From the IMG/VR virus record IMGVR_UViG_3300037520_000795, positions 1 to 60,758 of that record: DNA of 60,758 nucleotides; one strand, 5' to 3'. The position numbers and the translations under genes are program-made. This DNA comes from a virus (Duplodnaviria; Caudoviricetes). This document shows, piece after piece, positions 16,595 through 57,549 of this stretch; the first letter of the stretch is position 1; each line of letters opens with the position of its first letter. The notes beneath the pieces are model-generated. The model ran no database searches, was not told the origin of the DNA, and worked only from the letters and a program-made list of their open reading frames with translations.

Positions 16595-16630
16595 TGCGAG
16601 GCAGTGTCGACAGCACCACTGCTGACGCCT

Positions 16631-16671
16631 CCCCAGGGGCTGGTTACCTCCACCAGCCCCTGGGGTTTTTT
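16631..16671 (+). terminator. Rho-independent terminator
   Basis: 14-bp stem ccccaggggctggt/accagcccctgggg followed by T6. Confidence 0.8.
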
Positions 16672-16683
16672 GAAAGGACTCAC

Positions 16684-22738: not shown

Positions 22739-23055
22739 ACATCGCCGTCATGAAGTGGCTGCTCGCCAACCGCAACGTACTCCAGCAGGTGGTCGAGGCT
22801 GCCCGTGGCTGGAGGAAGGACATGCCCTACGCGGAGCAGTGGGTGATCGTCGACAAGATTGCCCGCATCCTCCTGCCCATCCTCGATCCGGCCACGGTCA
22901 CCAAGCTTTCGGTCCCGGAGTCCCCGGTCACGGTATCTGCTGCCATGTCTGTGGGTGCAGAGGTCCAGGCCCTGGGCGTGGACTGGAAGCTGATCGTGGA
23001 GGTCGTGATCCCGATCATCATCTCCATCCTCCAGGCCATCTCTCATACCCCGTGA
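22735..23055 (+). CDS. Small membrane protein
   Basis: C-terminal hydrophobic helix LIVEVVIPIIISILQAI. Confidence 0.65.
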   Translation: MNIAVMKWLLANRNVLQQVVEAARGWRKDMPYAEQWVIVDKIARILLPILDPATVTKLSVPESPVTVSAAMSVGAEVQALGVDWKLIVEVVIPIIISILQAISHTP

Positions 23056-30585: not shown

Positions 30586-30588
30586 GTG

Positions 30589-32690: not shown

Positions 32691-33016
32691 TAGATAGATA
32701 CCTCCTCGGTGTTGTCGGAATCGGACGAATCGCACTTGTACGGATGCTCGGCCATGTACTCTTCGATCTTGGATGGCATGTGAGGGTCGCACCTTTCGGT
32801 CCGGCACTCGTCCAATGCTCTGTCGAAGTAGTCGTACTCTGGCTTTGGTTCGTCAGCCCGGAGCGAAGGGATGCCCGGCAGGGTGGTCCACATCTGGCAC
32901 CACTGTCCGTTGCCGTAGATGCGGCGGCTGTTGCGATCCCACGTGTCCCAAACCATGCGGACGCGGAACCGTCCGACGACGAACTCTCGGGCAATGGGCC
33001 AGCAATGGTAGGTCAC
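32690..33016 (-). CDS. Hypothetical protein
   Basis: GTG 33016 coupled to the upstream stop; TAGTG coupling to the amidotransferase. Confidence 0.55.
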   Translation of the reverse strand: MTYHCWPIAREFVVGRFRVRMVWDTWDRNSRRIYGNGQWCQMWTTLPGIPSLRADEPKPEYDYFDRALDECRTERCDPHMPSKIEEYMAEHPYKCDSSDSDNTEEVSI

Positions 33017-40686: not shown

Positions 40687-41481
40687 ATGTCATGCCCTAC
40701 CCACTCTTGCAACTGCTGCAAGGGAGCCTGCTGCTGCGGTCGACACACCTGCACGCAGCTAAAGTGCGACGAGTGCGAAAGCACCACCTCCGTCACCTCG
40801 ACCAAGGGGTACGGACTGTTCATGGGGTACGGCCAAATCTGTGCCGACCATGACTCTGGGTCGCCGCCGTCCTACTACCCGTACTGCGACCGGCCTGTTG
40901 GCTGGTGTTGCAACAAGGCCACGGGTTCGTGTGCCCGCGATTCCGTAAACGGGCCGACAATCTCCCAGTGTGAGTGCTACCGGGAGAAGGGCTTGCCGCC
41001 GACCATTGAGTGGCAGGCCAACCCGTTTTGCGAAGACCCCACGCAGCCGTGCTGCCCATACGGCGTGTGCTGCTACACCAACGGCACATGCGGCAACGAG
41101 ACGAAGTGCATGTGCGAGTACCTGGGGGGCAACTTCCTTGAGGCTGGCGAGGAGAACGTCTGCGACACGGGGGCCTGCTGTTCGGGGACGACCTGCACGG
41201 TGCGGACCAAGTGTGCATGCTCCGTGATCGGCGGGGCGACGTTCAAGGGTTACGGGACGACCTGTAGCCCAAACCCATGCACCACATGCTCCCTGGACTC
41301 CGACTGTCCAGAGGGTGCGGCCAAGTGCTGCAACGGCACGTGCATCCCATCGGAGTGCTGCGTCATCGCCATCTCCACCACGTGCCCGGCAACCTGCAAT
41401 CTTGGGTGTACGCTTATCACTTCCGGCCCAAATGCCGGGAAGTACAACTGCTTCCGCAACGACTGCAACCCACTGCCATGA
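40687..41481 (+). CDS. Extremely Cys-rich repeat protein
   Basis: G(A/W/V)CC...C...C.C repeats throughout 264 aa. Confidence 0.8.
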   Translation: MSCPTHSCNCCKGACCCGRHTCTQLKCDECESTTSVTSTKGYGLFMGYGQICADHDSGSPPSYYPYCDRPVGWCCNKATGSCARDSVNGPTISQCECYREKGLPPTIEWQANPFCEDPTQPCCPYGVCCYTNGTCGNETKCMCEYLGGNFLEAGEENVCDTGACCSGTTCTVRTKCACSVIGGATFKGYGTTCSPNPCTTCSLDSDCPEGAAKCCNGTCIPSECCVIAISTTCPATCNLGCTLITSGPNAGKYNCFRNDCNPLP

Positions 41482-42011
41482 ACCCAATCTGGTCTTCGCC
41501 GGTCTACCTCCAAGAGCGTGCCCGCCAACGCGGGTACGCCTACGACGAGGTGACCCCGTGCATCGTCGAGGTCAAGGACGGGATGATCCTGGTGGACGTC
41601 GATCACCCGGCCTACCCCCTCCACCCCAAGCCTGGGTTCCACGAAAAGGCCACCGCCGCCCTACGGGCTGAGTCCGAAGCCCGGCAAGCCGCCTTGGACA
41701 AGGAGCGTGGTGCCAAGGGGCCAGGGACGGAACTCAAGCGGATGCTGCGGATGGTGGGGATCACAGCCACCCCCAACTGCTCCTGCAACGCACGGGCCGA
41801 GGAAATGGACACCCAGGGGTGCCTGTGGTGCCTCAAGAACACCGACAAAATCGTTGGTTGGCTCAAGGAAGAGGCTGACAAACGGCAATTGCCGTTCAGC
41901 CACGCTGGTGCAAGGGCACTTGTTTATGCGGCCGTTGCTCGGGCTGGGGCCAAGTCGACGGTGCGGAAGTTGATTCCTGGCAAGAAGGGGAAGGCCGATG
42001 CCAAGTCTTGA
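41478..42011 (+). CDS. Hypothetical protein with a CxC/CxxC metal-binding motif
   Basis: GPGTELKRML...NCSCNARA...GCLWC. Confidence 0.7.
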   Translation: MNPIWSSPVYLQERARQRGYAYDEVTPCIVEVKDGMILVDVDHPAYPLHPKPGFHEKATAALRAESEARQAALDKERGAKGPGTELKRMLRMVGITATPNCSCNARAEEMDTQGCLWCLKNTDKIVGWLKEEADKRQLPFSHAGARALVYAAVARAGAKSTVRKLIPGKKGKADAKS

Positions 42012-42558
42012 GGAAACAGCCAAGCGGTTTGGGATCGACCCAATCAAGGTGCCCGACCGGCAGAAGCTGACCGAAGCTGTCATTCAAGCTCGGGCTGGCG
42101 GCGACGTCCCGAAGGAAATCGCCCTCGTTGCCCCAGAGCCCCCAGCCGCTCCCGCCGATCCGCCTCCTGCCGCACCGCCCCCGCCACCCGCTGGCAACAA
42201 CCAGCAAGCCAGGGCAATGAACCAAGCCCACTCGGTGGTGTACGGGGCTCCGGTCATCGACCCGACGCACATGAGCAACCTCATGGAGAGCCAGCGGTCG
42301 CTCAGCAAGACCGAGTCGTACATCGCCAAGGAGAACGAGTCTCGGGTCGAGCAACTCAAGGAGGAGGCCGAACGCCAGCATGAGAAGGAGATGCTGGCCA
42401 TGAAGCAGCAGGGCAGGGACAGGGAGTCCTCCTTGATCGACCGGCTTGGCAAGGAGTCGTCTCGCGGTGGCTCGCTTCGCGTCTGGGACCCCGCAAGCAA
42501 GTCCTGGAAGTACGGCAACAAACTCCAGGTTGGCCGTGGCGGGGCAAGGCTCACATGA
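41998..42558 (+). CDS. Pro-rich / coiled-coil hypothetical virion protein
   Basis: Coupled ORF in the late operon. Confidence 0.65.
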   Translation: MPSLEETAKRFGIDPIKVPDRQKLTEAVIQARAGGDVPKEIALVAPEPPAAPADPPPAAPPPPPAGNNQQARAMNQAHSVVYGAPVIDPTHMSNLMESQRSLSKTESYIAKENESRVEQLKEEAERQHEKEMLAMKQQGRDRESSLIDRLGKESSRGGSLRVWDPASKSWKYGNKLQVGRGGARLT

Positions 42559-43244
42559 ACCCACTCAACGCCGCCAGTCGATTTCTTGTCGACCGAATCG
42601 CGGATGTAGCCAACGCCGCTGCAACACGCGTCGGTGGTGGCAATCGCACGCGGGCCATGCTGGCTGCTCGCCGTGGCATCAATGTTCTACCGCTCCCAGG
42701 TTCTGGGGCGGAAAGGCAGGCTGTCCTGGACAACCCGGCACTCTCGCCCAGTGTCGCCTATCGGCTGAAAAACAACTTCATCTCTGGCGGGTTCGTTCCT
42801 GGCGACCGGCAAACGTCCAACATTGGAACGGCCATCTACCCGGAAGGCAACAACGCCCTCAGAGACCATGAGATCAACCACGGGTACTGGGAGGCGGCTG
42901 TACGCGACCCGACCGACATGCCAGCGTTCATGCGGTGGTTGGTAGGCCGCGTGAAGGAAGCGGCCCCCGGCGATGAGTACAGGAGGGCCGAGGCCACTCG
43001 CAATCTGTTCAACGAGATCGCCGCCCAGATGCGAGGGGGCCGCAATTTCACGGACATCCCCGCCGAGACGTACGCACGCCTGCACGCGAACAACCCAGAG
43101 CTTGCCGAGGCGTACCGTGCCTTCGGTCGATTCCAGGCTGGGGCCGAGGGAATGGCTGGGGGGGCAATCGGAGGCGTGTTGGGTGCCTCTGCTGGACTCG
43201 GCATAGACACGCTCGGTGGTCTTCTTGACGATTCGGAGATGTGA
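42555..43244 (+). CDS. NPLN-leader protein with a zincin (HExxH) motif and a C-terminal glycine zipper
   Basis: MNPLNAA; RDHEINHG...NEIAAQ; GGAIGGVLGASAGLG. Confidence 0.7.
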   Translation: MNPLNAASRFLVDRIADVANAAATRVGGGNRTRAMLAARRGINVLPLPGSGAERQAVLDNPALSPSVAYRLKNNFISGGFVPGDRQTSNIGTAIYPEGNNALRDHEINHGYWEAAVRDPTDMPAFMRWLVGRVKEAAPGDEYRRAEATRNLFNEIAAQMRGGRNFTDIPAETYARLHANNPELAEAYRAFGRFQAGAEGMAGGAIGGVLGASAGLGIDTLGGLLDDSEM

Positions 43245-44194
43245 TGCCTGCATTTGCTGGACCACTCAAGTCCGGGTACATCCCGGCGGCAGCCGCTGGA
43301 CCGAACATCCCCTGGCTGGTGGATGACGCCAAGCAGAAGATTGCTGTCCAGAGGCCGGTGGAGTTGCCGAGCCTAGCCAGCCGGATGTTCCATCACCCTG
43401 GCGTCTTGGGATACGCCATGCGTGACCAGGATGAGTACAACGACGCCGTCAGGCACGACCTCCTCGTCAAGCGTCTTCGGGAGATTCGCGACCAGTTCCC
43501 GAACGAGTTCGCCAACACCAACGCTGGCACAGGTCCAGATGGCAAGCCCATCCAGTGGGGCGATGTCCCGCTGGACCAAGACACCACTCCGTCGCCGTAC
43601 AAGTGGCGTGGAATCTCTGCCCCCGGCCAGCCGATGCGAGAGGGGTCTGACTGGCTTCGATCGGTGTTCTCAATCCCGCAGAACGCCGTCCGGGTGATGG
43701 GCGGAAGCGTCAACCAAGCCAAGGCCGAGAGCGACATGGCCAAGGGGTTGGACACCGCACTCATGGGCATCCCCTCCATGATCCAAGGCAAGGACGCCAA
43801 CCCAGAGTGGTCGGGTGACAAGGAGCGTCCCTTTGCTGCCCTGGAGCGACTGACGGAATACCCGGAATCGCAGGGGCTCCTGGAAGCCAAGCCTTCCAAT
43901 TCCGATGAGGCGAGGGACGGAATCACCTCGTTTGGCCAAGCCTTCGTGGACATCGGTGCCCCCGAGAACACGGCCACCTACATGGTTGGCGGTCTTCTCG
44001 ATGGCCTGACCGACCCATTCCCGCTTGGTCCAGCGGCTTTCCGATCGGCCATGGCCAAGCAGTACGGCAAAGCTGCTATCCAAGCCGCCGCCGAGTTTGG
44101 CCCCAACCTTGGAGCCAGCTATGTCGCAGCCCCCCGCAAGCCAGTCGCGCCGCCAGAACCCGTTGTCCATAAGCACTGGTCGGAGTACCACTGA
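43244..44194 (+). CDS. Hypothetical internal virion-type protein
   Basis: TGATG coupling at both ends; GGLLDGLTDP segment. Confidence 0.65.
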   Translation: MPAFAGPLKSGYIPAAAAGPNIPWLVDDAKQKIAVQRPVELPSLASRMFHHPGVLGYAMRDQDEYNDAVRHDLLVKRLREIRDQFPNEFANTNAGTGPDGKPIQWGDVPLDQDTTPSPYKWRGISAPGQPMREGSDWLRSVFSIPQNAVRVMGGSVNQAKAESDMAKGLDTALMGIPSMIQGKDANPEWSGDKERPFAALERLTEYPESQGLLEAKPSNSDEARDGITSFGQAFVDIGAPENTATYMVGGLLDGLTDPFPLGPAAFRSAMAKQYGKAAIQAAAEFGPNLGASYVAAPRKPVAPPEPVVHKHWSEYH

Positions 44195-44775
44195 TGCCGA
44201 ACCCGCTGAACCGCGCAATGGCAATAGCGTCTAAGGTGGTTGGGGAACTCCCTGTCGGGAAAGTACTTCCGCCTCCACCGCCGCCCCCTCCCGCTCCTGC
44301 CAGGGCGTTCCATCAAGCAGAGGCACCTGCTGCGAACTCTCGTCTTGACGAAGTTCTTGCTGCCGTGCAGCGAGCCATTTCCAAGCAGCCTGTTCCGGAA
44401 GGCCACTCTCGGCTGTATCGGTACGGCCCAGTGCCTGCTGACGCGTCTGGCGACGGCACGCGAACAGTGTTCGGTAAAACGTATACGCCAGAGGAGTGGG
44501 ACAAGTACCTCGCTTCTAAAGGAATACGAAACACAGAGCCGACCGGCGCTCGCGGACGGTGGTTTACGGACGTCCCAGAAGAACTTGACTACTACGTCAA
44601 GGACGCAGCTTTTCCAAAGCCCCTGTATGCCGTGGACGTTCCATCCGCAAGGCTTCCAGACATAAACGTGTCGCGCACCCCGTACTCAGAAAGTTCATCG
44701 AACCACGCGCGTGAGTTTGTGGTGCCTGACGAATACCTGACGCAAGCAAGGCGGCTTCTTGAGGGACGCCAGTAA
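44194..44775 (+). CDS. NPLN-leader protein, putative ADP-ribosyltransferase fold (R-S/T-E type)
   Basis: MPNPLNRA; RLYRYG, RWFTD, LYAVDVP, REFVVP. Confidence 0.6.
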   Translation: MPNPLNRAMAIASKVVGELPVGKVLPPPPPPPPAPARAFHQAEAPAANSRLDEVLAAVQRAISKQPVPEGHSRLYRYGPVPADASGDGTRTVFGKTYTPEEWDKYLASKGIRNTEPTGARGRWFTDVPEELDYYVKDAAFPKPLYAVDVPSARLPDINVSRTPYSESSSNHAREFVVPDEYLTQARRLLEGRQ

Positions 44776-45362
44776 TGCCGAACCCACTGAACCGAGCGGT
44801 CGGGCAGCTTGATGGGCTTCTGGCAAGGCTGGCTGGGTACAGCACACGCTCGCCTCGCGTCCACTCTGGCGTGAGGTTCAATCCGGCTGACGGTCTTGGC
44901 GGAACCCCCGACGCCGCCAACATTGACTACCGTGGCTTCCAGGCGTACATGACACCGGCTGAGTTCCTTGGGCTGAACCCGGCAAGGAATTATCCGTACG
45001 ACCATGTCCAGGAAGCCATCCGGTCTGGCCAGGAAATCAGCACGCCCATGCTGATGGTCGACCGACTCCCGAAAGGCGAGGGCTGGAAGGTGGTGGGGCA
45101 CGAAGGCCGTGGACGCATGATGTCGTTGGCCGAGCAATCCCCGGACTCCCTGTTCCCCGTTGGCGTCCACCCGTACGGAGAAGTTCGGGCCAGGAACCTT
45201 ACGCCCGACGACTTGTTCCGAGCTATCAAGCCCGAGATGGACAACTCGCGGTCTGTTGCTGTGCCGAGGATGGCAATCCTGAACAAGACGCCATACGTTC
45301 GCCCTGGGCTTGGTGACGACGAGGCCGTGGTCCGTGCTCTCCTTGAGATGCTGGGGGAATAA
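44775..45362 (+). CDS. NPLN-leader protein, ParB/Srx-like domain
   Basis: MPNPLNRA; MTPAEFL...PMLMV...VVGHEGRGR. Confidence 0.55.
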   Translation: MPNPLNRAVGQLDGLLARLAGYSTRSPRVHSGVRFNPADGLGGTPDAANIDYRGFQAYMTPAEFLGLNPARNYPYDHVQEAIRSGQEISTPMLMVDRLPKGEGWKVVGHEGRGRMMSLAEQSPDSLFPVGVHPYGEVRARNLTPDDLFRAIKPEMDNSRSVAVPRMAILNKTPYVRPGLGDDEAVVRALLEMLGE

Positions 45363-45949
45363 TGCCGAACCCACTGAACCGAGCGATGAACGTGGCGAAG
45401 TCGGTTGTTGATGCAGCCATGGCACCGGCCGCACGCAAAGTAGACCCGGCGTCCCTGCCTCCTATCCCGGAAGACTATGTGCGACTGACGCACAACACAT
45501 CTCGGGTTGATCCGTTCCAGGCCGGTGCCCCGTTCCGCTATGCCGGTGAAATCATCGACAGCAGCACGGACTCGTTCACCAACAACGAACAGGTCGCCAA
45601 CTGGGTCAGCCAAGGCAAGCGAGACAGCTTCGGCCCGCTCACCTTGCTGATGGACATGCCGATCGACGAGCACAACAAGAGGATGTGGCGGTTCGGGTGG
45701 AGTGGGTACAAGCCCGTGCCAAACAGCAACATCATCGGCCACATCGACGAGGCAGGGAAGTTCGTCCCACTCAAGGTCGACACGACCAACGCCGACCAGT
45801 ATTCGGGTCGTCTGTATCGCGAGTCAAAGGAGTCTGACTACGTTCGGCGTCTTCTCAAAGACATGGACGACGCCATTCTCGACGACTACAACCCGATCCC
45901 GCCGCCCGTCAAATACATCAGACCGCCCGGCGACCCGGACGTTTTCTAG
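45362..45949 (+). CDS. NPLN-leader protein, possible ADP-ribosyltransferase fold (H-type)
   Basis: MPNPLNRA; PIPEDYVRLTHNT, LLMDMP, PVPNSNIIG. Confidence 0.5.
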   Translation: MPNPLNRAMNVAKSVVDAAMAPAARKVDPASLPPIPEDYVRLTHNTSRVDPFQAGAPFRYAGEIIDSSTDSFTNNEQVANWVSQGKRDSFGPLTLLMDMPIDEHNKRMWRFGWSGYKPVPNSNIIGHIDEAGKFVPLKVDTTNADQYSGRLYRESKESDYVRRLLKDMDDAILDDYNPIPPPVKYIRPPGDPDVF

Positions 45950-45962
45950 GCAAGGAGCGTCA

Positions 45963-46928
45963 ATGCCCAACCCGCTCAACCGTGCGGTCGACATGGCTGG
46001 TGATGCAGTCCGCAAGATCATCGCCTACCACGGCTCTCCGCACAACTTCGACAGGTTTGATGCCAGCAAGATCGACACTGGCGAGGGCGTTCAGGCATTT
46101 GGTCACGGCCTGTATTTTGCGGGCAACGAAAGCACGGGGCAGTACTACCGCGACACGCTTGGTGGCCAAAAGATCGTTGACTACCTCGACGGGAATCCGC
46201 TCGACAGAAGCGAATACGCCAAGTATGCAACTGGCGAGGTCGCATACCCGAGCATTGACACTGAGCAGGGGGTGCTTGCAAGACTGCTTTCGACTCCAGG
46301 GTTTCCGATTCAAGGCTCGTCCTCATTGCTGGACCGGCAGATAAAGAGAATCGAAACGCCATCAAGGAGACACTCAAACTCGCTGGCCTTGCGGTTAATG
46401 GGCACCCCGTGGGAAAGCGCTTCGGTCGATGAGCTAAAAGCAGCCAGAGACATTGCGGCAAATCTAGAGAGCCGCACATCTAGCGTGCGTTCCCCGGCAG
46501 GAGTCATGTACCAAGTAGAGATTGGGCATCCGGAGTCATCTCTTCTGGATTGGGATGCGCCAATGAGTCAACAGCCCCTGCCTGTTCGCCGGGCGTTTGG
46601 TGACTCGGGCATGGACCTTCCTGGAGACGGACGCAGGGTTTACATGGACGCGGTCACGCGATTGGGGGAGGGCTTTGACGATGATGCGACTGGATTTTTG
46701 GCTGGCAAGGCTGCTGCCGAAGAGTTGCTTTCCGAGGGAATACCGGGCATCAAGTACCTAGACGGAATGTCTCGCAATCTTGGGGCAGGCAGCCGCAACT
46801 ACGTCATGTTTCCCGGCACCGAGGACTCCATCACCATCCTCCGCAAGTACGGTTTACTGCCCGCCGTAGGGGTCGGAGCGGCCTCCGCAGGGAGTGCCAT
46901 GCAAAATCCTGCGCAAGATTCGCAGTAG
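45963..46928 (+). CDS. NPLN-leader protein with a phage-virion ART-like domain (polyvalent-protein type)
   Basis: AAGGAG SD; MPNPLNRA; AYHGSPHNFDRFD...GEG.QAFGHGLYFA; GIPGIKYLD...NYVMF; hydrophobic C-terminal tail. Confidence 0.75.
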   Translation: MPNPLNRAVDMAGDAVRKIIAYHGSPHNFDRFDASKIDTGEGVQAFGHGLYFAGNESTGQYYRDTLGGQKIVDYLDGNPLDRSEYAKYATGEVAYPSIDTEQGVLARLLSTPGFPIQGSSSLLDRQIKRIETPSRRHSNSLALRLMGTPWESASVDELKAARDIAANLESRTSSVRSPAGVMYQVEIGHPESSLLDWDAPMSQQPLPVRRAFGDSGMDLPGDGRRVYMDAVTRLGEGFDDDATGFLAGKAAAEELLSEGIPGIKYLDGMSRNLGAGSRNYVMFPGTEDSITILRKYGLLPAVGVGAASAGSAMQNPAQDSQ

Positions 46929-46978: not shown

Positions 46979-48049
46979 ATGTCCATCGAAGACTCCATCA
47001 CTTCCGACGCGACGAGCGAATCGCTCGGCTCCCAGGATGCCGGTGTTTCCGGTTTCTCTGGGGCTGACGCTGGCTCGCAGGCCCCGCAGTCGAACGACCA
47101 ATCGGCCGGTTCTTCTGCCGGTGGCTTCAGTACTCCGTACGAAGCGTTCCGGCATCTCCCCGACTTTCAGGGCAAGGACGACCTTGCGATCGCGCGGGAC
47201 TTGTACAAGGCCCATGCGGAGCGGCAGGAGCTTTCCCGGCAACTCAACCAGTTTCAGACGTTGCTTCCGGCCACGCAGGACTACGTTCGCCATGAGCGTG
47301 AGTTCCAGGCGTGGAAGCAAGCCCAGGCCGAAGCGGCGCGGCCCAGGGCTCCGGAGCAGCCGAAGTGGTGGAATCCGCCGAAGGTCGAGGATTCGTGGAA
47401 GAGTTACATCGTCCGCGATCCCCAGACCGGGAGGGAGGTGATCTCGCCTGACGCCCCGTACGAAGCCCAGCAGGCTCTGCGTCAATACCAGAGCTACACG
47501 GCTGACTTCGTCCGACGCTTCGCCACCGACCCCGAGTCGACGCTGAAGCCGTTCGTGGAGCAGGTCGCCGTCCAGAAGGCCCAGGAGATGGTGCAGAACC
47601 ATCTCAACCAGTACGCCACCACGAACTACGTCCAGGACCTGAACCGGCAGAACGCGGACTGGCTCTACGACGACCAGGGCCGCACGACCCAGGCCGGTCA
47701 GGCGATCTCGCACTACATCAACGAAGCCGCCAGCATGGGCATCCAATCGGCCCAGGACCGTTGGCGGTACGCGACGGGCTCGCTCCAGCGTGACCTGCTC
47801 GCGGCCCAATACCAGCGAGTCATGGCTGGCCAGCAGGCCCCCCAGGCTCAGCCGCAATCCATCCCGCAGGCCCCAGTGGGCGTCCAGCAGCAGGACGACG
47901 CCGCGGCTCGCGACATGCAGTTTCTTCGGGAACGGGCGATGCACGCCCCGAACCGAAGTGGTGGCTCAACTGAACCGAGGGCACCGCGCCCCCGGCAGAG
48001 TTTCAATGATCGACTTCGCTCCCAACTTGAGCATGACGGAGTAATCTGA
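46979..48049 (+). CDS. Capsid scaffolding protein (putative)
   Basis: Acidic Ser-rich N-terminus, helical Gln-rich body, immediately upstream of the capsid gene. Confidence 0.65.
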   Translation: MSIEDSITSDATSESLGSQDAGVSGFSGADAGSQAPQSNDQSAGSSAGGFSTPYEAFRHLPDFQGKDDLAIARDLYKAHAERQELSRQLNQFQTLLPATQDYVRHEREFQAWKQAQAEAARPRAPEQPKWWNPPKVEDSWKSYIVRDPQTGREVISPDAPYEAQQALRQYQSYTADFVRRFATDPESTLKPFVEQVAVQKAQEMVQNHLNQYATTNYVQDLNRQNADWLYDDQGRTTQAGQAISHYINEAASMGIQSAQDRWRYATGSLQRDLLAAQYQRVMAGQQAPQAQPQSIPQAPVGVQQQDDAAARDMQFLRERAMHAPNRSGGSTEPRAPRPRQSFNDRLRSQLEHDGVI

Positions 48050-48051
48050 CA

Positions 48052-49164
48052 ATGAGTTCTAATGTTGACTGGGCACGTTCCATTGCCACGACCATTGTCA
48101 ACCATCTCCGCGAGGAGGAGGTTGCATCGCTCCGTAAGTACAAGGTTTTCTCGCTGATCGAGGGTTCCGGCAACGTCCGGACCAACGAGGCTGGGCGAGG
48201 TTTCGACTGGGAAATCCAGTACAGGAATCACACTCCGTCCGGCAATAACGGCGAGACTCCTCGTTCGTTCGCTCGCCAGAACCTGTGGAAGCGGGTTGAG
48301 CTGGAGTACAGAGGAGCACAAGTCACGGACGCGATCTACAAGCGCGAGATGCTTGAGAACCGTTCGTCTTCTGCCCTGGTCAACGTCGCCGGGAAGATGG
48401 CTTCCCGCCTCCTGACGTCGATGGAGCAGTATCTGGCGCGTGAGTGGGTCCAGGACGGTTACGCCAGTGGCAACGAGCTTCGGTTCCACGGGACCGAGTC
48501 GTTCATGGGCGTGAACGGCACTGTCAACATCGCGGACGGCACGCAGCGTTCGGCCAATGCCGCCGATCCCTTCGGTTACCCGAGCGACACCTACGGCGGT
48601 CTCTCGACCGTCCTGGGTTCGTACGGTGGATCGCAGGCTTCCGGCAGCGTGTGGCCGAACGGGTACGCCGATCCGGAGTTCGACTTCTTCTCTCCTGTGA
48701 TCGTCAACTTCACCTCGACCTACTTCGGTGGGTCGACTTGGAGTGCGAACTGCACCAAGGCTCTCCGCGAGGCGATCCACCAGACTCGCCGCAACGACAG
48801 CAAGGAAGACCAGATCGACACCGTGTTCCTGGATCGTCGACTCTTCATCGACTTCCTCAACACGCTCGACGCCAAGGAGCGAGTGATCGTCAGCCGCACC
48901 AACGGCCTCCGGTCCTACGGCTTCACGGACGTCTTCGAACTCGACGGCGTCGAGGTGTCTTCGGAGAACTCTGTGCCGGTGAACACTGGGTACGGAATGG
49001 CCATGGGCAATGTTGAGTTGCTCTGTATGGAAGGCCAGCTTCTGAACTCTGAGGGTCCGTTCTACGACGAAATCACGCAGCAGTTCCGCTACGTGGTGTC
49101 GTGCCTCGGCAACCTCAAGTTTAAGTCACCGAGGAACTTCTTTAAGCTCCAGGCCCTTGCTTGA
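48052..49164 (+). CDS. Major capsid protein
   Basis: 370 aa; strong codon bias; position after the scaffold; G...F.G motif and C-terminal GNL...PR. Confidence 0.8.
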   Translation: MSSNVDWARSIATTIVNHLREEEVASLRKYKVFSLIEGSGNVRTNEAGRGFDWEIQYRNHTPSGNNGETPRSFARQNLWKRVELEYRGAQVTDAIYKREMLENRSSSALVNVAGKMASRLLTSMEQYLAREWVQDGYASGNELRFHGTESFMGVNGTVNIADGTQRSANAADPFGYPSDTYGGLSTVLGSYGGSQASGSVWPNGYADPEFDFFSPVIVNFTSTYFGGSTWSANCTKALREAIHQTRRNDSKEDQIDTVFLDRRLFIDFLNTLDAKERVIVSRTNGLRSYGFTDVFELDGVEVSSENSVPVNTGYGMAMGNVELLCMEGQLLNSEGPFYDEITQQFRYVVSCLGNLKFKSPRNFFKLQALA

Positions 49165-50148: not shown

Positions 50149-50307
50149 ATGCCAGAGCCTTCCGCCATCCAGAACATGGACTTCCTTCGCCAGCTTCTTG
50201 AGCGGGCCAAGCAAGACCCCCAGATCATGGACATGCTTCGCTTGAGGATGCTTCAGGGGTCCGGACTTGGCCTGGACGCCGTCGCTCGCCTGCGGGGTGA
50301 CCAATGA
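50149..50307 (+). CDS. Small hypothetical protein (52 aa), not in the ORF track
   Basis: MPEPSAIQNMDFLRQLLERAK...; ATGA coupling. Confidence 0.55.
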   Translation: MPEPSAIQNMDFLRQLLERAKQDPQIMDMLRLRMLQGSGLGLDAVARLRGDQ

Positions 50308-50786
50308 ACCCGCTCGACGGCTTGATGGGCGACGGGAAGCCCAGCCCGTTTGTCATGGTCTCCGACGAGCGGAAGCCAGCCGCCGAGATGTCGCTTCGCA
50401 ATCTGATCGCGGAGTACCTCGCCTACCAAGAGGAGATGGGCCGGGAAGACGCTCTGCCGTCAGACGACTCCCCGGAAGGCATCCAAGCCTGGAATGAACG
50501 GATGGCCCGCACAAAGGACGTAGGCAAGGAAGCCGCTGGTCGCCTGGGGGTCTACTGGAACGACTTCGTGATGGGGGCTCCCATTGGCGTGTGGAAGCAG
50601 AGCACCGTCCACAACGACGATCTCCTCATGAACCGCAAGCCCACGTTCGGGACCAACGGTGTGATCTCCGCCCCAACGGACCGCTTGATCCCGCGAAGGA
50701 GAAACTCCAACACCAAGGTCTTCCGTCTGCCGGTTGACCGCGGCAAGCTGCCGTCGAATCCCCACCCCGATCAGAACAAAACGTGA
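50304..50786 (+). CDS. Hypothetical protein with an MNPLDGL leader
   Basis: Coupled ORF; leader resembles the NPLN family. Confidence 0.65.
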   Translation: MNPLDGLMGDGKPSPFVMVSDERKPAAEMSLRNLIAEYLAYQEEMGREDALPSDDSPEGIQAWNERMARTKDVGKEAAGRLGVYWNDFVMGAPIGVWKQSTVHNDDLLMNRKPTFGTNGVISAPTDRLIPRRRNSNTKVFRLPVDRGKLPSNPHPDQNKT

Positions 50787-50793: not shown

Positions 50794-51450
50794 ATGATAA
50801 AGGCCATGTCTTCCTACACGGGATCGCAGCAGCCCCAGAGCGGCGGATACCAGTCGGTCTACAGTCAGAGTGGTGGGCCGAGTGCCTACACTCCCAAGCC
50901 CCAGGCTCCCAAGCGGAAGGCTGCTCCTGGTGATGTGTACTCCGCTCGCCGTGCCTGGAAGCAGGCTGGGGGAACCGGCGACTGGCGGGCCTACATGCCT
51001 GGGGCTGGCGGATACCAGAACGCCCCGCTGGCCGAACCGGGCGGAATGTCGATGCCAGCGTACGCCCCTCCCTCGCAGCCTGGGACCCGAGGCGGTGCTG
51101 CCACCCCCGGCCTGTTGGATGGAGGCTGGGGGCAGCCGAACGCTCGGCCCAGCAGCCCGATCCCTCCTTACGCCGCTGCCCTTCCTCAAGGTGGGTTCAA
51201 CGCGTCGTACGGCCAGCTTGGCGGTGGCTACGGCTCCACGCCCGACTTCAATCGCCGGGACGCGTTCATCAACAACATCAACGAGACCATGGCCGGGTAT
51301 CAGGGGAACCAGGGAACCTACCAGGGGAACGACACTCCACCGGCCACATGGGGTCAGGCCCCGCAGTTTGACTTCCCTGCCCTGTGGAAGCAGGCGGGCA
51401 ACATGGTCCAGAGCGGCTGGCAGAACCCGCTGCTCGGACTGCTCGGGTAA
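50794..51450 (+). CDS. Gly/Pro/Gln-rich hypothetical virion protein
   Basis: Low-complexity sequence ending in QNPLLGLLG. Confidence 0.65.
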   Translation: MIKAMSSYTGSQQPQSGGYQSVYSQSGGPSAYTPKPQAPKRKAAPGDVYSARRAWKQAGGTGDWRAYMPGAGGYQNAPLAEPGGMSMPAYAPPSQPGTRGGAATPGLLDGGWGQPNARPSSPIPPYAAALPQGGFNASYGQLGGGYGSTPDFNRRDAFINNINETMAGYQGNQGTYQGNDTPPATWGQAPQFDFPALWKQAGNMVQSGWQNPLLGLLG

Positions 51451-51493
51451 GTGCTATACTTCCGTCCACTCCAACCCCCCCCGAGGAGAGACG

Positions 51494-52945
51494 ATGATCC
51501 AGAAGTTCAAGGTCGGTATCTGCACGTTCAGCTACGGCGGCAATGGAGGCATCTCCTCCGAGGTGCCCGACATCCGGGAGTGGATGATCCCCCTGGTGGC
51601 TTCGGCCCAGTCCGACCCTCGCATTGACGCCATCCAGGTCTGGAACCTGTCCGACACGCCGATCACCATGACCCGCAACCGGGCAGTGATCCAGGCTCGC
51701 CAGAACGGCTGCGACTTCCTGCTCATGGTCGACTCCGACATGAAGCCGGACCTGTACTTCGGCTCCGACCCCCTGGCCCAGCAGTTCTTCCAGTCGTCCT
51801 TCGACTTCCTGGCCAAGCACTACCACAAGGGCCCGGCGTGCGTCGGTGCCCCGTACTGTGGGCCCCCGCCGAACGAGTGCGTCTACGTGTTCCGTTGGGC
51901 GAACTTCCAGAACGAGAACCCGAATCCGGACTTTGCCCTGGAGATGTACGACCGCCACACTGCCGCCAAGCTGGCTGGCATCCAAGAGTGTGCGGCTCTC
52001 CCGACCGGCCTGCTCATGTACGACATGCGGCTGTTCGACATCACCGAGCCGAAGCAAGAGGGTGACAAGCCCTGGTTCTACTACGAATGGAAGGACGTCT
52101 ACTGCTCGGAGAAGGCGTCGACCGAGGACGTCACCAACACCCGAGACCTGTCCCTCGTTGGCACGCAGAAGCTGGGGTACAACCCCGTGTTCTGCAACTG
52201 GGACGCCTGGGCCGGTCACTGGAAGCCGAAGTGCGTCGGCAAGCCCACGCCCGTGGACGCAAGTGCCATCGCCTCCAAGCTCAAGGAGTCATGGGAGGCT
52301 GGGTACGACGGCAGTACCAAGCTCCTCGACCTTCGGCCCATCGACAGTCCGGTCGTGCCCAAGGGCGAGATGACTCGGCCCACCGCCCTGTCCCTGCTCC
52401 CGGACGGGTTCGACGACATGGGCATGGGGCTTCCGGCCCAGGATGCCGACGCTCTCCGGACCATGATCGAGCGGTTCAAGGAGCAGTTCGGGTACGCCCC
52501 ACGTGTCCTTGAGATCGGATCGTGGGCTGGCAAGTCAGCCATCATCATGGTCGAGTCCGGTGCCGCCTGCGTCCACTGCATCGACACCTGGGAGGGCTCC
52601 AAGAACGACGACGGAACGAAGGCATACACCGGTGCCGTCCCTCCCATCCAGGTGTTCTTCGACAACACCGAGGCGTACAGGCGTCAACTGAAGATCAAGT
52701 GGTCCAAGGCTCGCTCGCCCGACATCGCCAAGAACTTCACCTATCCCCCGGTCCCGCACGACATCGTCTACATCGACGCCGAGCATGACTACGACTCGGT
52801 CATGGCAGACATCGCGGCGTGGCGTCCGATCGTCAAGTGGGTTGCCGGTCACGACTACCACTCCTTCGAAGGCGTGCGTAAGGCCGTGGCCGATTCCGGA
52901 CTTGTCCCAGAGGTGCATGGAAATGTCTGGTGGGCCACACCTTGA
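51494..52945 (+). CDS. Glycosyltransferase (GT-A-like) fused to a class I SAM methyltransferase
   Basis: RN...A...DFLLMVDSD (DxD), TGLLM and TED motifs; C-terminal EIGSWAGKS, IDAEHDY and AGHDY; GAGGAG SD and an upstream TGcTATACT. Confidence 0.8.
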   Translation: MIQKFKVGICTFSYGGNGGISSEVPDIREWMIPLVASAQSDPRIDAIQVWNLSDTPITMTRNRAVIQARQNGCDFLLMVDSDMKPDLYFGSDPLAQQFFQSSFDFLAKHYHKGPACVGAPYCGPPPNECVYVFRWANFQNENPNPDFALEMYDRHTAAKLAGIQECAALPTGLLMYDMRLFDITEPKQEGDKPWFYYEWKDVYCSEKASTEDVTNTRDLSLVGTQKLGYNPVFCNWDAWAGHWKPKCVGKPTPVDASAIASKLKESWEAGYDGSTKLLDLRPIDSPVVPKGEMTRPTALSLLPDGFDDMGMGLPAQDADALRTMIERFKEQFGYAPRVLEIGSWAGKSAIIMVESGAACVHCIDTWEGSKNDDGTKAYTGAVPPIQVFFDNTEAYRRQLKIKWSKARSPDIAKNFTYPPVPHDIVYIDAEHDYDSVMADIAAWRPIVKWVAGHDYHSFEGVRKAVADSGLVPEVHGNVWWATP

Positions 52946-53480
52946 GCGGCGGGCTTGCCTGACTTGCGGCAAGACCTACGCCCTGGAGCCTAGGTTCTGG
53001 CACAAGGCCAAGGATGGCTTTCACGCCCACTGCAAGCGGTGCCGCAACGGCAGCATCAAGAAGAAGCGTGCCGCCAAGCGGAACGAGAAGCTTGAGGAAA
53101 TCGAGAAGGGTGCCGTCGATCTCTTCCTGGCATCGGCTCGGGTGGGGGGTGCCAACATCCCTCACTCGGCCGAACTGCTGGAAGTGCTCATGCGGTACTT
53201 CGGTGGGGCTGGCGGGTTTGCCAACGCCTACATGAAGCAGTTCTTCGACGCTCCATCCGGCGGTGCGTTCCGAACCAAGATGCTCGACACGGTGGTTCGC
53301 TTGGTCCAGGCCAACACCGCCATGGGTGGAGCCCAGAAGCCGCTGGAGTTCTGGACTGAAGAAGAACTCCAGAACGAACTGAAGAAGAAGCTGCTGCTTG
53401 CGGCCCAGGGCATGAAGCTCATCGAGGTCACCCCAGAGCCTGTCTCCGCACCGGCTGAGCCCGAGCGAGAGACGGCATGA
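52917..53480 (+). CDS. Putative terminase small subunit / zinc-finger protein
   Basis: CLTC...CKRC; directly upstream of TerL; C-terminal TEEELQNEL. Confidence 0.55.
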   Translation: MEMSGGPHLERRACLTCGKTYALEPRFWHKAKDGFHAHCKRCRNGSIKKKRAAKRNEKLEEIEKGAVDLFLASARVGGANIPHSAELLEVLMRYFGGAGGFANAYMKQFFDAPSGGAFRTKMLDTVVRLVQANTAMGGAQKPLEFWTEEELQNELKKKLLLAAQGMKLIEVTPEPVSAPAEPERETA

Positions 53481-55150
53481 AGAAGCACCCGCCGATCCCT
53501 CCACCTCCCATACCCGAGGTGGCAGAGTCGAACATCACGCAGCATGCGATGTCGCAACTGCGTGACCTCCAGGCGGAACTGGCCAATCGCCAGATCGAGG
53601 CCCTGCGTCTCTACGAGCCCATGCCCAAGCAGGACGAGTTCCACAGGTGCATGGCGTCCGAGCGGATCGTCATCGGCGGCAACCGGTCGGGTAAATCCCT
53701 ATCGACGTTCATCGAGGACGCACGGGCGGTCACCGGCCAGGACCCCTACAACAAGTACCCCAAGGAGAACGGCAACCTCGCCATCATCGGCAAGAACTGG
53801 TCTCACATCGGCTTGGTCGTTTACCCCATGCTGTTCCGAGCCGGGGCGTTCCGCATGATCCGCGACGAGGTGACTGGTGTCTGGAGGGCATACCGCCCAG
53901 CCACAGACGGCCACCGCCTCTTGCAGTCCAAACCCGCTCCTCCTTTAATACCGCCCCGCCTTATTAAAGACATCGCGTGGGTCCAGAAGAACGCTGGGTA
54001 TCTGAACTCCGTCGAGCTTACCAACGGTTGGCGAATCTTCGTGTTCTCCAGCGAAGGCGAGCCGCCCCAGGGTTTCCAGGCTGACCTTGTCCACATCGAC
54101 GAGGACATCAACAACGAGCGGTTCGTCGGAGAAATGCAGGCCAGACTCTCTGACCGTAAAGGGAGGTTTGTCTGGAGTGCAATGCCCCATTCGAAAAATG
54201 ACGCCTTGCTCGGCTTGTGCGAGCGTGCGGAGCGTGTGGCTGACAACCCGGACGCAATCATCCGGAAGTTCACCCTGCGGTTCCTTGACAACGATCACAT
54301 CGACAACGAGGAGAAGAAGAAGAACGTCGAGCGGTGGTCCGACCTTGGTGTCGAGGAACTCCGCATGCGTGCCGAGGGTGAGTTCACCCACGAATCCACG
54401 CTGATGTACCCGACGTTCAACACCAGCGTCCACGTGATCCCGCGTTCGGAACTGATGACAATCCCGGATGACTGGACAAGGTACGTTGCCATTGACCCAG
54501 GCCACACGGTCATGGCCGCACTGTTCGGTGCCGTGCCTCCGGGCGAGAAGTTTCTGCTAATCTACGACGAGCTTTACATCCGGGATTGCAACGCACTGAT
54601 CTTCGGTGAGCACTTCGCCAAGAAGGCCGAGGCTCAATCGTTCTGGTCGTTCATCCTGGACATGCACGGCGGTCGGTTGCGAGACATCGGTGGTGGTCGA
54701 CTGCCGCACGAACTGTACTCGGAGGAGTTGAGGAAACGGAACATCCGGTCGCGTGCGTCAGGCTACGGATTCATCCCTGGCTCCGACGACATCCCGGCTC
54801 GCACGGCCATGGTTCGGCAGATGCTCCACATCCGCGGCGACGGGACGACCAAGCTGAAGTTCTGGGAGGGTGCCTGTCCGAACCTGCTCCGCGAACTGAA
54901 GCGATACCGCAAGAAGACGACGACCCTCAATGGACAGACCTACGTGACCGACGAGCCCCAGACGCGGGGCGAGGTCCACGCCTGCCAAGTCCTTGAGTAC
55001 CTGTGTGCCTACGAACCCAAGTACCACCAACCCCCCAAGGTATTTGGCCCCCGGACCTGGATTGACAAGTACCTCACCGACAAGGCGCGGCGGAAGCGAA
55101 GTAGCTCCGATTCGTGCATTGTCCTTGGCCCCATAGGGAAACAGCCATGA
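53477..55150 (+). CDS. terL: Terminase large subunit
   Basis: Q motif (PKQDEFH), Walker A GGNRSGKS, Walker B VHIDED, nuclease motif AIDPG. Confidence 0.93.
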   Translation: MKKHPPIPPPPIPEVAESNITQHAMSQLRDLQAELANRQIEALRLYEPMPKQDEFHRCMASERIVIGGNRSGKSLSTFIEDARAVTGQDPYNKYPKENGNLAIIGKNWSHIGLVVYPMLFRAGAFRMIRDEVTGVWRAYRPATDGHRLLQSKPAPPLIPPRLIKDIAWVQKNAGYLNSVELTNGWRIFVFSSEGEPPQGFQADLVHIDEDINNERFVGEMQARLSDRKGRFVWSAMPHSKNDALLGLCERAERVADNPDAIIRKFTLRFLDNDHIDNEEKKKNVERWSDLGVEELRMRAEGEFTHESTLMYPTFNTSVHVIPRSELMTIPDDWTRYVAIDPGHTVMAALFGAVPPGEKFLLIYDELYIRDCNALIFGEHFAKKAEAQSFWSFILDMHGGRLRDIGGGRLPHELYSEELRKRNIRSRASGYGFIPGSDDIPARTAMVRQMLHIRGDGTTKLKFWEGACPNLLRELKRYRKKTTTLNGQTYVTDEPQTRGEVHACQVLEYLCAYEPKYHQPPKVFGPRTWIDKYLTDKARRKRSSSDSCIVLGPIGKQP

Positions 55151-55500: not shown

Positions 55501-57549
55501 ATGCACGACAACCCACTTCGGGCCATCTCGGCGTCCTGGCTCAAGCTCTTGAAGCAGGCCAAGGACCACAAGAAGCCCTTCAACGACGATGCTTGGGAAG
55601 CCATGCAGTTCTTCTGCGGCGATCCCAACTTCATGTGGGAGAACTCCTACGCCCGTGGGGAACGGGGGTACAACAAGGGCATTGAGCCGCCCCCGTTCCG
55701 CATGCAGGTTAACCGGGTGTGGGAGGCCGTCCGCTTGTTTGCGGCGGTCATCCACCACCGGAACCCGACCCGCACCGTCACGGCCCGCAAGTACCCGGCC
55801 GTCGAGCCGATGATGCTCGGGATCATGCCCCAGCCTCCGCAGCCAATGATGGGCCCCCAGGGGCCTGTGATCGGTCCGGACGGCCAGCCCGTCATGCTCC
55901 CGGACCAGGGCTTGATGATGTACCAGCAGATGCTCCAGCAGCAGGAGTTCTTCCTGAAGAAGCGAGAGCTTGTGTCGAAGCTGCTGGAGGACTACCTGAA
56001 CTACACCCCCGTCGAACTGAACACCAAGACCCACAATCGCAAGGTGGTGGAAGAGGCGTTCATCAAGGGCGTCGGTGTGTGGTGGCATGAGATGTACGCC
56101 CCGGCCGGGTCGGACGTCCAGATGGCTGGGTCGTTCTACGACACCTTCGACAACCTCGTCTGGGACCCGGACGCCGACGACTTCCAGGACATCCGCTGGG
56201 CAGCCCGGCGTCGGTGCCAGCCCTTGGACGAGGTGGCGGCACGGTTCAATCTCTCCCGCGAGCAACTCAAGGGCCACCTGGAAAGCTACACCTCCCGTGC
56301 GGGCGAGGGCGAGCGTGGCCATGAGTTCAAGAAGAAGACCGGCAAGACGAACGACCTGATCGTCTACTGGGAAATCTACTCCAAGACCGGCTTCGGTGAC
56401 CGGCTCAAGGGGGCCGAGATCGACGAACGGATCAAGGGCTCGTTCGACTCCGTGGGTCAGAACTGCTACATCGTCGTGGCCGAAGGCGTGGACTTCCCGC
56501 TCAACATCCCGCCCTCGATGATGGACGAGCCCATCGAGGAGCCGCTGGACGACGGACTGGGCGGCGTGGGTGGCGAACCCGCCAAGACTGCCGTTCCCCA
56601 GAAGCTGTTCATGGCCGCTCAGTGGCCGGTGCCTTTCTGGATCGAGCCCCAGGGTTGGCCGTTCACGCTCTACTCCCTGCACTGGAAGCCTGGGTACTCC
56701 TACCCGGTGTCCATGATCCGCCCTGGGATCGGTGAGCTTCGCTTCATCAACTGGGCCATGAGTTGCTTGGCGACGAAGATTTCCATCTCGTCCAAGACTC
56801 TCATCGGCGTGGCCAAGGCCGCTGACCCGGAACTCAAGGACAAGATTCTCAACACCTCCGAGAACGGCTTCAACGTCGTGGAAATCTCGGAGGCCATTGG
56901 CCGCAACGTCAACGACGTCATCTCGGTGTTCCAGATGCCGCAGGTGACGCAGGACATGTGGCACATCATTGCCGAAGTGACGGCAATGTTCGATCGACGC
57001 GTCGGGTTGACCGAACTCGTCTACGGCATGACGCGGAACCAGTTCCGGAGTGCCGCTGAGGCAAACGTCAAAGCGGAGCAGATTAGCGTTCGCCCTGACG
57101 ACTACGCTAACATCCTCGAGGATTCGTTGTCGGAGTGTGCCCGCAAGGAGGCGTTGCTGGCCCGGTGGTTCGTGCGTCCCGAGGACATCGCTCCGCTCAT
57201 GGGTCCGATGGCTGCCCAGGCTTGGCAGATGCACGTTCGCAATCAGAACCCGGACCAGATCGTCCGCGAGTACGACTACCGCATCGAAGCCGGTTCGGCA
57301 CGCAAGCCGAACGTCGCCACTCGCGTCGAGAACATCAACAACGCCATGCAGATTCTCATGCCTGTTGCCCAGGGCATGCTCCAAGCCGGGAAGCCCGAAC
57401 TGTTCAACGCCCTCATCGAAGACTGGGGCAAGGCTCTCCAGGTGGACGTCGGCAAGTACATCTTGCCCCCGCCGCCACCGCCGCCACCACCACAAGGCCC
57501 CGTCGAGGGCCCGCCACCACAGGAAGGACCACCCGATGGACAGCGCTGA
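55501..57549 (+). CDS. Portal protein
   Basis: 682 aa after TerL; P22-like features (GVG.W, VWDPDA, RSAAEA, IEAGS); Pro-rich tail. Confidence 0.8.
   Translation: MHDNPLRAISASWLKLLKQAKDHKKPFNDDAWEAMQFFCGDPNFMWENSYARGERGYNKGIEPPPFRMQVNRVWEAVRLFAAVIHHRNPTRTVTARKYPAVEPMMLGIMPQPPQPMMGPQGPVIGPDGQPVMLPDQGLMMYQQMLQQQEFFLKKRELVSKLLEDYLNYTPVELNTKTHNRKVVEEAFIKGVGVWWHEMYAPAGSDVQMAGSFYDTFDNLVWDPDADDFQDIRWAARRRCQPLDEVAARFNLSREQLKGHLESYTSRAGEGERGHEFKKKTGKTNDLIVYWEIYSKTGFGDRLKGAEIDERIKGSFDSVGQNCYIVVAEGVDFPLNIPPSMMDEPIEEPLDDGLGGVGGEPAKTAVPQKLFMAAQWPVPFWIEPQGWPFTLYSLHWKPGYSYPVSMIRPGIGELRFINWAMSCLATKISISSKTLIGVAKAADPELKDKILNTSENGFNVVEISEAIGRNVNDVISVFQMPQVTQDMWHIIAEVTAMFDRRVGLTELVYGMTRNQFRSAAEANVKAEQISVRPDDYANILEDSLSECARKEALLARWFVRPEDIAPLMGPMAAQAWQMHVRNQNPDQIVREYDYRIEAGSARKPNVATRVENINNAMQILMPVAQGMLQAGKPELFNALIEDWGKALQVDVGKYILPPPPPPPPPQGPVEGPPPQEGPPDGQR

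Follow-up and report, generated by a model that had tools for sequence, protein, structure and literature searches.

Why should a run of otherwise dissimilar phage genes, placed directly before a putative scaffold gene and the capsid gene, begin with one and the same short peptide? The question is raised by the IMG/VR virus record IMGVR_UViG_3300037520_000795 (Duplodnaviria; Caudoviricetes), a stretch of 60,758 bp that was analysed whole, has a completeness rating of 100% and is called the window below. Several of its small, enzyme-like proteins carry the leader MPNPLNRA or a variant of it. The computations establish that this leader exists, that a motif of the same type occurs clade-wide on unrelated cargo at one locus, that it is homogenised within genomes and that the cargo behind it includes two folds. 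As to its role, we consider it probable, on balance, that the leader is an N-terminal virion-incorporation (capsid-targeting) peptide borne by separately encoded cassettes, akin to those of phages T4 and P1. The genes concerned, all on the plus strand, are the following (aa, amino acids).

42555-43244 (+): 229-aa protein with the leader MNPLNAA, a zincin-like candidate with an HExxH motif
43241-44194 (+): conserved 317-aa gene product with no NPLN start, homologues in 23 related loci
44194-44775 (+): cargo 1, 193 aa, MPNPLNRA leader, Pro-rich linker, core GHSRLYR...GRWFTD...REFVVPDE
44775-45362 (+): cargo 2, 195 aa, MPNPLNRA leader, predicted ParB/sulfiredoxin-fold domain, invariant GHEGRxR
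45362-45949 (+): cargo 3, 195 aa, MPNPLNRA leader
45963-46928 (+): cargo 4, 321 aa, MPNPLNRA leader, predicted ADP-ribosyltransferase (ART) fold, ART-PolyVal-like, with long insertions
46979-48049 (+): putative scaffolding protein, by position and conservation only, homologues in 75 loci
48052-49164 (+): major capsid protein, match to phrog_9953 (a major-head PHROG) at E 2.5e-5

The placement of the array before scaffold and capsid, claimed in the initial annotation of this DNA, stands by position and, for the capsid, by the PHROG match; the scaffold is so called by its position only, 46979-48049 having no family match in the Pfam or PHROG scans.

The four MPNPLNRA starts (at 44194, 44775, 45362 and 45963) and the MNPLNAA start at 42555, from which that annotation had set out, were all confirmed in the open reading frames (ORFs). 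Two further plus-strand starts of this kind lie beyond the array, at 8094 (GTG, MANPLNKL, 818 aa) and at 50304 (MNPLDGL, 160 aa), and the minus strand offers only one 25-aa ORF and one 105/108-aa ORF. The degenerate DNA pattern for MPNPLN has four exact matches in the window and one with two mismatches (8094) against 0.20 expected, and none of 100 shuffles attained five matches. Because the pairwise BLASTP similarity of the leader-bearing proteins is confined to their N-termini (residue 1 to about residue 9-34), they are not full-length paralogues; past about residue 20 they are unrelated, the initial annotation having called them mostly so. The four 8-codon MPNPLNRA leaders vary at five sites, each a third codon position at which the change is synonymous, and those of 44775 and 45362 agree at 24/24 nt. 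The DNA segments 5' of the array ATGs are unrelated to one another; every start is preceded by a Shine-Dalgarno (SD)-like purine run, three starts share one base with the stop codon before them, and no promoter or terminator signal within the array rose above shuffle level. The start of 45963 falls inside a longer mechanical ORF (45702-46928), yet it has its own AGGAG 10 nt upstream. Since the leader differences are synonymous and the upstream DNA is unrelated, the repeat is a feature of the peptide, in an operon that is tightly coupled and continues into the putative scaffold and capsid genes, and the leader is under protein-level constraint, that is, purifying selection. In the AF2 models a leader helix occupies residues 4-15 of 45963 (pLDDT ~60) and 7-18 of 44775 (pLDDT ~93), preceded in both by a low-confidence cap.

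The capsid protein led to 147 confirmed relatives in IMG/VR, the best 80 of which (78-100% identity) were retained, and the locus counts given here rest on these 80. With 147 relatives there, yet no match in a tblastn search of the capsid protein against 50,697 deposited phage records, the window phage is a member of an abundant, uncultured, podovirus-like clade with genomes of ~60 kb, which is present in freshwater-type samples. It had been predicted that in related phages the leader would persist while the cargo varied, and this holds for the type of leader at the same locus but not for the exact octapeptide. NPL[ND] starts, sought at the locus in the relatives, were found only in L005, a near-identical copy of the phage with a 100% identical capsid protein; L064 and L067 each have one MANPLD ORF that overlaps the capsid gene in a different frame and was taken as chance. 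A degenerate-DNA scan of IMG/VR for MPNPLNRA returned only the window record and, on the opposite strand, one unrelated low-GC siphophage. Of the homologues found in other assemblies, P0004 and P0005, which match the 45362 protein at 92% and 83% identity, retain MPNPLNRA, P0158 (45% identical to the 42555 protein) still starts with MNPLN, and P0002 and P0007 start with MGTPLSRA and MAYPLKAAGSLDDLISRL. The homologues of the window cargo in the relatives begin with similar peptides (MPTPSQLDASGDAIRQV, MANPLSHLDEAGDAVRKV, MANPITRLDKLIQRV, MPVGRLDELITRL, MGKLDRLESVLRAV, MGKIDDLIA, MPSYYDDAAKAADDLIRRL and MPSWLDDAGDAVRR), and the variant leaders at the locus include MPTPSQLD, MANPITRLD, MGKLDxL and MPSYYDD. 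The N-terminal pattern common to them is Met followed by P, A or G as a small residue, frequently x-Pro, and then an acidic amphipathic helix. Judged by sequence, the conserved feature is a loose motif in which a small-residue/Pro cap precedes an amphipathic helix of the form (L/I)D-x-x-x-x-(V/I)R, and the exact octapeptide is restricted to the window phage and a few near relatives.

A short leader hidden Markov model (HMM) made from 24 distinct N-termini was used to scan candidate starts of ORFs of at least 80 aa in the 80 loci and the window, the start codons of the relatives being picked by rule and not by a gene caller. At 10 bits or more there were 74 starts on the gene strand, the seeds themselves included, versus 4 on the opposite strand, which held about half the candidates. 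The matches are concentrated 1.6-5.6 kb ahead of the start of the capsid gene, directly before the scaffold gene, and among the 54 loci with at least 3 kb of upstream sequence a leader-bearing ORF was present in 42, 47 and 49 at thresholds of at least 10, 7 and 5 bits, respectively. By body sequence the matches form ~15 clusters, with 1-3 per relative and 5 in the window, and the cargo content varies even among close relatives. The cargo families outside the seeds include proteins of 450-570 aa (…AGRVIAGLLTYNPGPG), 207-214 aa (MPNPTRYVADVSG…) and 181-192 aa. One relative has a C5 cytosine DNA methylase in the slot (L032:4123-5037; PF00145, E 6.8e-26), whose leader-like N-terminus, MAQPFRYADAAGDVIRKL, is borderline (TTG start, 11.7 bits). 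A 264-aa Cys-rich protein is encoded at 40687-41481 (MSCPTHSCNCCKGACCC...), and many relatives have it a few kb upstream of the cargo slot with CC-rich starts such as MACCKCCCENG and MPCDCCCSQNPC; it had no family match in the scans.

Leaders of unrelated proteins from the same genome resemble one another more than leaders from different genomes. Pairs of leader-bearing proteins with no similarity past residue 28 were compared, the window being excluded, and the nine within-genome pairs had 3.44/8 identical N-terminal residues versus 1.44/8 in different-genome pairs, a concordance equalled in just 3 of 2000 label shuffles. In L046 the zincin-like and the ART-like proteins both start with MGKIDDLIA, and in G002 the ART-like protein and a 360-aa protein from another part of the genome both carry MPSYYDDAA; the pairs of L078, L056 and L059 are discordant, with scores of 0-1. 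The concordance is compatible with a single receptor specific to the genome and also with gene conversion between leaders.

Two of the five fold assignments of the initial annotation, those of 45963 and 44775, were verified. The 45963 protein and its 30 distinct relatives have an invariant YHGSP motif, GxGxYFA and YE(V/L)EI sequences, a C-terminal NYVMFPGTEDSIRILRKYG block and long variable insertions. ART-PolyVal (PF18760) matched 23/31 family members at E<=0.01 (best 8.1e-7); the window protein itself scored 22.4 bits (E 2.3e-4, profile positions 7-59), under the 31.2-bit gathering cut-off. H23 is invariant and Y51 nearly so, and the consensus YEVEI reads YQVEI in the window protein, which gives candidate H-Y-E residues. 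The AF2 model is moderate (pLDDT 68, pTM 0.61). Foldseek against the PDB gave no match at E<=0.001 for the 45963 or the 44775 model, and the fold calls for both are based on VIA-align, BFVD and the consistency of the match lists. The top structural match of the 45963 model was an ejection protein of cyanopodophage A4, a pre-ejectosome protein (PDB 9k3a chain B; gp27 by residue numbering). There the domain is part of a protein of >1700 aa and, in the available portion of the A4 paper, it is not termed an ART; the 45963 family had no sequence-level match to the A4 protein. From the family matches and the structural comparison we assign 45963 a predicted ADP-ribosyltransferase fold. After the last strand, the family has a C-terminal tail, RKYGLLAPxAAGAAS (window 46840-46928; alignment A1 columns 401-447), and the 42555 protein also ends in a Gly/Ala-rich stretch; such tails could be a second common feature of the cargo.

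For 44775 the AF2 model is confident (pLDDT 94, pTM 0.90). Foldseek placed Osa first (probability 0.96, E 0.012), followed by Noc, ParB, SbnI, PadC and sulfiredoxin (Srx), and VIA-align gave Osa 6.8, Srx 5.4 and SbnI 5.0, with a serine kinase, Noc, ParB, PadC and KorB also present; the named rows we take to be members of the ParB/sulfiredoxin superfamily, and 2 of the 28 rows are uncharacterised proteins. The BFVD matches (E 1.8e-11 and 1.6e-10) are annotated ParB/Sulfiredoxin and include 1096-aa proteins and a 1044-aa 'tail lysozyme' protein. The model thus points to a ParB/sulfiredoxin alpha+beta fold, with H109, G111, R112 and R114 of the GHEGRxR motif, invariant in 70 sequences, as candidate active-site residues. 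Homologues number 605 representatives at E<=1e-3, many of them embedded as domains within proteins of 2,000-5,500 aa. A Pfam scan of ten such large proteins found ART-PolyVal in three, the other domains of the ten being LPD1, LPD5, LPD38, MuF_C, InPase, GNAT, tape-measure-like domains and ankyrin repeats, and 44775-like and 45963-like domains occur together in five proteins (P0153, P0093, P0038, P0051 and P0083). The earlier suggestion that the cargo consists of domains of the polyvalent-protein kind is borne out by these fusions. The 44775 family had no Pfam or PDB sequence match, and PDB sequence-profile searches with the 44775, 42555 and 45963 families gave nothing useful.

The other array proteins are less tractable. 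In 42555, HExxH (H105, E106, H109) and E154, a Glu 48 residues downstream, are invariant in the four known sequences, as befits the zincin that had been proposed, but the Gly-rich tail, read as a glycine zipper, is not conserved in homologues; with no Pfam or PDB sequence match, the protein is a zincin candidate by motif. The 44194 and 45362 proteins have three homologues each, and hhalign gave them no significant relation to the ART family (probability 0.5% for the 44194 family and 7.6% for the 45362 family). The Atlas gave leads only for 44194 (Tox-ART-HYD1, TreTu_C and TNT, all <0.9; TM <0.5) and no match for 45362, so an ART-like fold for these two is a weak lead. The 43241 protein, which had no Pfam or PHROG match, has a leader-like helix, PWLVDDAKQKIA, at residues ~23-35.

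A second leader-bearing locus lies far from the array.

8094-10550 (+): 818-aa protein, GTG start, MANPLNKL, located where the structural module ends and immediately preceding the giant protein
10554-14639 (+): giant protein of 1361 aa, MARSPLYD start, no leader, kept in 5/5 complete relatives

The giant-protein N-terminus, MARSPL(F/Y)D, is conserved across relatives, in which the gene order is a homologue of 7769-8101, a first protein of the 360-aa type, a second protein and a giant protein of 1220-1360 aa. The first protein, of 360 aa in G002 and with homologues in G001, G004 and G005, is located at the end of the structural module and has leader-like N-termini (MPNPARYADDVADGIRRLL, MPSYYDDAAELIRRLL, MANWLDNLIATG and MASPAAVAQGLADYIQL); its HMM scores are 10.6 bits in G002 and 9.7 in G001, both near noise, and 7.3 in G004, that of G005 not being among the matches listed. 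The initial search of the five complete relatives with the 8094 protein gave no match. Its C-terminal half was then related by phmmer only, and weakly (E 1.1e-7), to the second protein of the relatives, and because of this homology and the same position 8094 seems to have arisen by fusion of two ejection-like proteins, the leader-bearing first and the second. The proteins of the 8094 region and the giant protein had no family match; the three are likely ejection proteins by size and position, podovirus genome organisation, as given in the available part of PMC12002296, being the basis of this assignment. The gene at 41478-42011 adjoins the cargo array, as do its homologues in G003 and G005, but in G001, G002 and G004 the homologue is in the tail module, which indicates module shuffling between the two leader-bearing regions.

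To our knowledge, capsid-targeting peptides have been established experimentally only in T4 and P1, both of which are myoviruses. The accessible text on T4 describes diverse internal proteins that have only the capsid-targeting sequence (CTS) in common, which brings them into the scaffolding core (PMC3012670). The window is alike in that a short N-terminal peptide is the sole common feature of diverse proteins, as in IPI-III and Alt, and the T4 cargo likewise includes an ADP-ribosyltransferase, along with anti-restriction factors, and varies among related phages (accessible text of PMC3012670 and PMC5512222). Otherwise unrelated proteins of one phage with a short N-terminal peptide in common, the hallmark of the T4/P1 type, are thus what the window contains. 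The differences are that T4 is a myovirus whose prohead protease removes the CTS, whereas the window phage has a P22-like portal and no recognised prohead protease; that the leader sequences are unrelated; that the window cargo genes form one array beside scaffold and capsid; that the window tag is also on a large ejection-module protein; and that packaging is proven for T4, whereas in the window phage it is proposed. In P1 DarB the first 30 residues suffice for capsid targeting, and an N-terminal signal of >9 and <30 residues sends a reporter into the capsid, the cargo being anti-restriction (PMC9024508, in the portion available). The Dcm methylase behind a leader-like start in L032 is a further likeness, whereas P1, as far as that portion goes, puts a single signal on a single giant protein and follows a stepwise Dar assembly, and the window phage has one signal type on many small proteins. 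Polyvalent proteins as catalogued by Iyer et al. (2017; PMC5512222, in the text accessible) have domain types in common with this locus, namely ART-PolyVal, ParB/Srx, a zincin-like peptidase and a methylase, encoded in both beside virion genes; they are defined there, however, as single polypeptides of 2-15 domains, whereas each domain of the array is a separate ORF with its own leader, start and SD-like sequence, and none joins two or more effector domains in one polypeptide. MuF polymorphic toxins, in the parts of PMC5576092 and PMC12226406 available, also combine a conserved N-terminal delivery module with a variable C-terminal toxin. That module is a whole domain, and the Pfam scan found neither Phage_Mu_F nor MuF_C in the array proteins at E<=0.1; the address here is ~8-20 residues. 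Encapsulin cargo-loading peptides are short terminal peptides that dock diverse cargo inside an HK97-fold shell, and they are usually C-terminal and non-viral. An open-access literature search for a comparable podovirus tag yielded only the P1 paper, which is not proof of absence from print.

Family scans place the array in the following genome, the GC content of which is 59-65%.

53477-55150: large terminase
55501-57549: P22-like portal
elsewhere in the window: tail-fibre-like proteins, exonuclease VIII, Erf, a split helicase, a sigma factor and an S8 subtilase
50304-50786 (+): 160-aa ORF, MNPLDGL start, possible weak leader bearer, seen only in the window phage

The subtilase (22755-23990; Pfam E 1.3e-53, phrog_3677 E 1.2e-75) is the genome's sole recognised protease; its place is in the early/middle region, remote from the head genes, and it is kept at 62-66% identity in 5/5 complete relatives. 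The helicase is in two parts, ResIII (16594-17232) and Helicase_C (17666-18739), and between them lies a 155-aa ORF without annotation (17229-17696), which may be an inserted mobile ORF; in G003 and G005 the helicase is one gene of 503-511 aa. The 691-aa ORF 50870-52945 has a C-terminal Methyltransf_24 domain (E 5.7e-11), its best counterparts have 288-334 aa in G001-G004 and 467 aa in G005, and its N-terminal part corresponds to a separate ORF in relatives, so that it may be a fusion or have a missed start. On the minus strand, at 30589-32807, an amidoligase-like gene adjoins a class-II glutamine amidotransferase-like gene; the pair had no match in 4/5 complete relatives in a search that queried only plus-strand ORFs, and only plus-strand ORFs antisense to it matched G002. 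An ORF at 30112-31416 (+), with a TTG start, MPNPLGIAD and 10.4 bits in the leader HMM, was dismissed as a leader bearer, probably a chance match, because it is antisense to the PHROG-supported amidoligase gene 30589-31791 (-).

If the leader is an address to the virion, the tag would consist of a short exposed cap (MPNPLN here) and a 10-12-residue amphipathic helix, and one phage-encoded receptor in the assembling procapsid would recognise it, most plausibly the scaffold or an internal ejection-protein core, with the coat protein a less likely candidate. The place directly before scaffold and capsid would serve as a slot for swappable enzyme cassettes, with predicted ADP-ribosyltransferase, ParB/Srx-type nuclease/NTPase and zincin-like activities in the window and a Dcm methylase and others in relatives. 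Co-expressed with the head proteins, the cassettes would be taken into the head and reach the host along with the DNA, the set doing the job of the single giant polyvalent or ejection proteins of other phages. Going further, the leader may be a universal address of the whole clade, by which one procapsid receptor loads a core ejection protein together with small, hot-swappable single-domain enzymes of the ART, ParB/Srx nuclease, zincin and DNA methylase kinds and several others without a known fold, an 'unbundled' polyvalent protein; we regard this as quite possible, if somewhat short of probable. The cassettes would then be gained, lost and exchanged independently, and the window phage, with five, would be the most expanded case seen. 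The interpretation put forward in the initial annotation, a packaging address on a modular payload, is on the whole partly supported.

Several observations weigh against an address to the capsid. The presence of the cargo in the virion is argued indirectly, from the position of the locus, the leader in the ejection module and the A4 match, and the clade has no cultured relative. The leader helix of 44775 may, in the model, belong to the domain fold, which leaves only residues 1-6 (MPNPLN) clearly free, and in the ART family the leader part DxAGDAVRxVI runs straight into the conserved domain and could be domain sequence. As no prohead protease family was detected among the 45 ORFs scanned, tag cleavage in the manner of T4 is unsupported. 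The HMM scores lean to the ART family because the seeds are mainly ART-family N-termini. The similarity of leaders within genomes could come from gene conversion instead of a common receptor, and since phages with identical capsid proteins carry differing leader caps, there is no close match between cap and coat protein. The scaffolds of these phages do differ (95.1% and 87.7% identity), which is compatible with the scaffold rather than the coat as the partner of the leader, weakly so because scaffolds evolve faster anyway. Mapping the leader class on the capsid-protein tree gave 14 changes and was too confounded by phylogeny to identify a co-varying receptor.

Among the other explanations, the one that survives best, unlikely as we hold it to be, is that the leader docks a partner outside the capsid, such as a chaperone, an inhibitor/immunity protein or an adaptor, which would silence toxic enzymes in the producing cell, the cargo acting in the cytoplasm with no packaging. 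A common tag on unrelated enzymes and its homogenisation within genomes are accounted for equally well in this way, and the conserved 317-aa gene that lies within the array in 23 loci, 43241-44194, is one candidate for the partner. What such docking leaves unaccounted for is the leader type on the first large protein of the structural/ejection module, the fixed place directly before scaffold and capsid, and the residence of the cargo domains in polyvalent and ejection proteins elsewhere. More doubtful still is a role of the conserved 5' end as nucleic acid, be it a translation initiation/coupling element or a short stretch of homology through which the Erf/RecE-type recombination system of the phage exchanges cassettes, with the peptide as a by-product. 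The stop/start overlaps do indicate translational coupling, two leaders are identical over their 24 nt, the phage encodes exonuclease VIII-like and Erf proteins, and close relatives differ in cargo content. All five differences between the leaders are synonymous, however, the sequence upstream of the ATG is not conserved, the relatives retain the peptide pattern despite quite different codons and residues, and even the 45%-identical homologue of 42555 keeps the MNPLN start; a recombination role could at any rate co-exist with one at the protein level.

It is improbable that the leader is a processing or turnover tag, either a degron for host AAA+ proteases or a propeptide cut by the S8 subtilase, that limits or times the action of toxic enzymes. 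The subtilase is well conserved in the complete relatives, and residue 2 of the leader is almost always P, A or G, residues that favour Met removal; on the other side, no cleavage motif is conserved after the leader across the cargo families, and nothing connects the leader with the subtilase, which is encoded far from the head genes. That the leader is a functionless remnant of serial duplication, the bodies having diverged past recognition, is hardly credible, since the tandem arrangement and the similar lengths (193-195 aa in three genes) are outweighed by two bodies of different fold, ART versus ParB/Srx, which largely refute it, by homologues that the bodies have elsewhere, some without the leader, and by purifying selection on a leader that recurs on further families in relatives.

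Should the leader prove to be a capsid-targeting peptide, the same targeting logic would be found in a podovirus-like lineage that seemingly has no prohead protease, with a defined cargo slot beside the scaffold gene, and T4 internal proteins, polyvalent proteins and podovirus ejectosomes would be joined by it. The small-residue/Pro cap with its acidic amphipathic helix would give a rule by which the injected effectors of metagenomic phages could be predicted from sequence, and ~15 candidate families of early-acting effectors, mostly without a known fold, would already be named. It would also offer a short tag for putting foreign proteins into phage heads.

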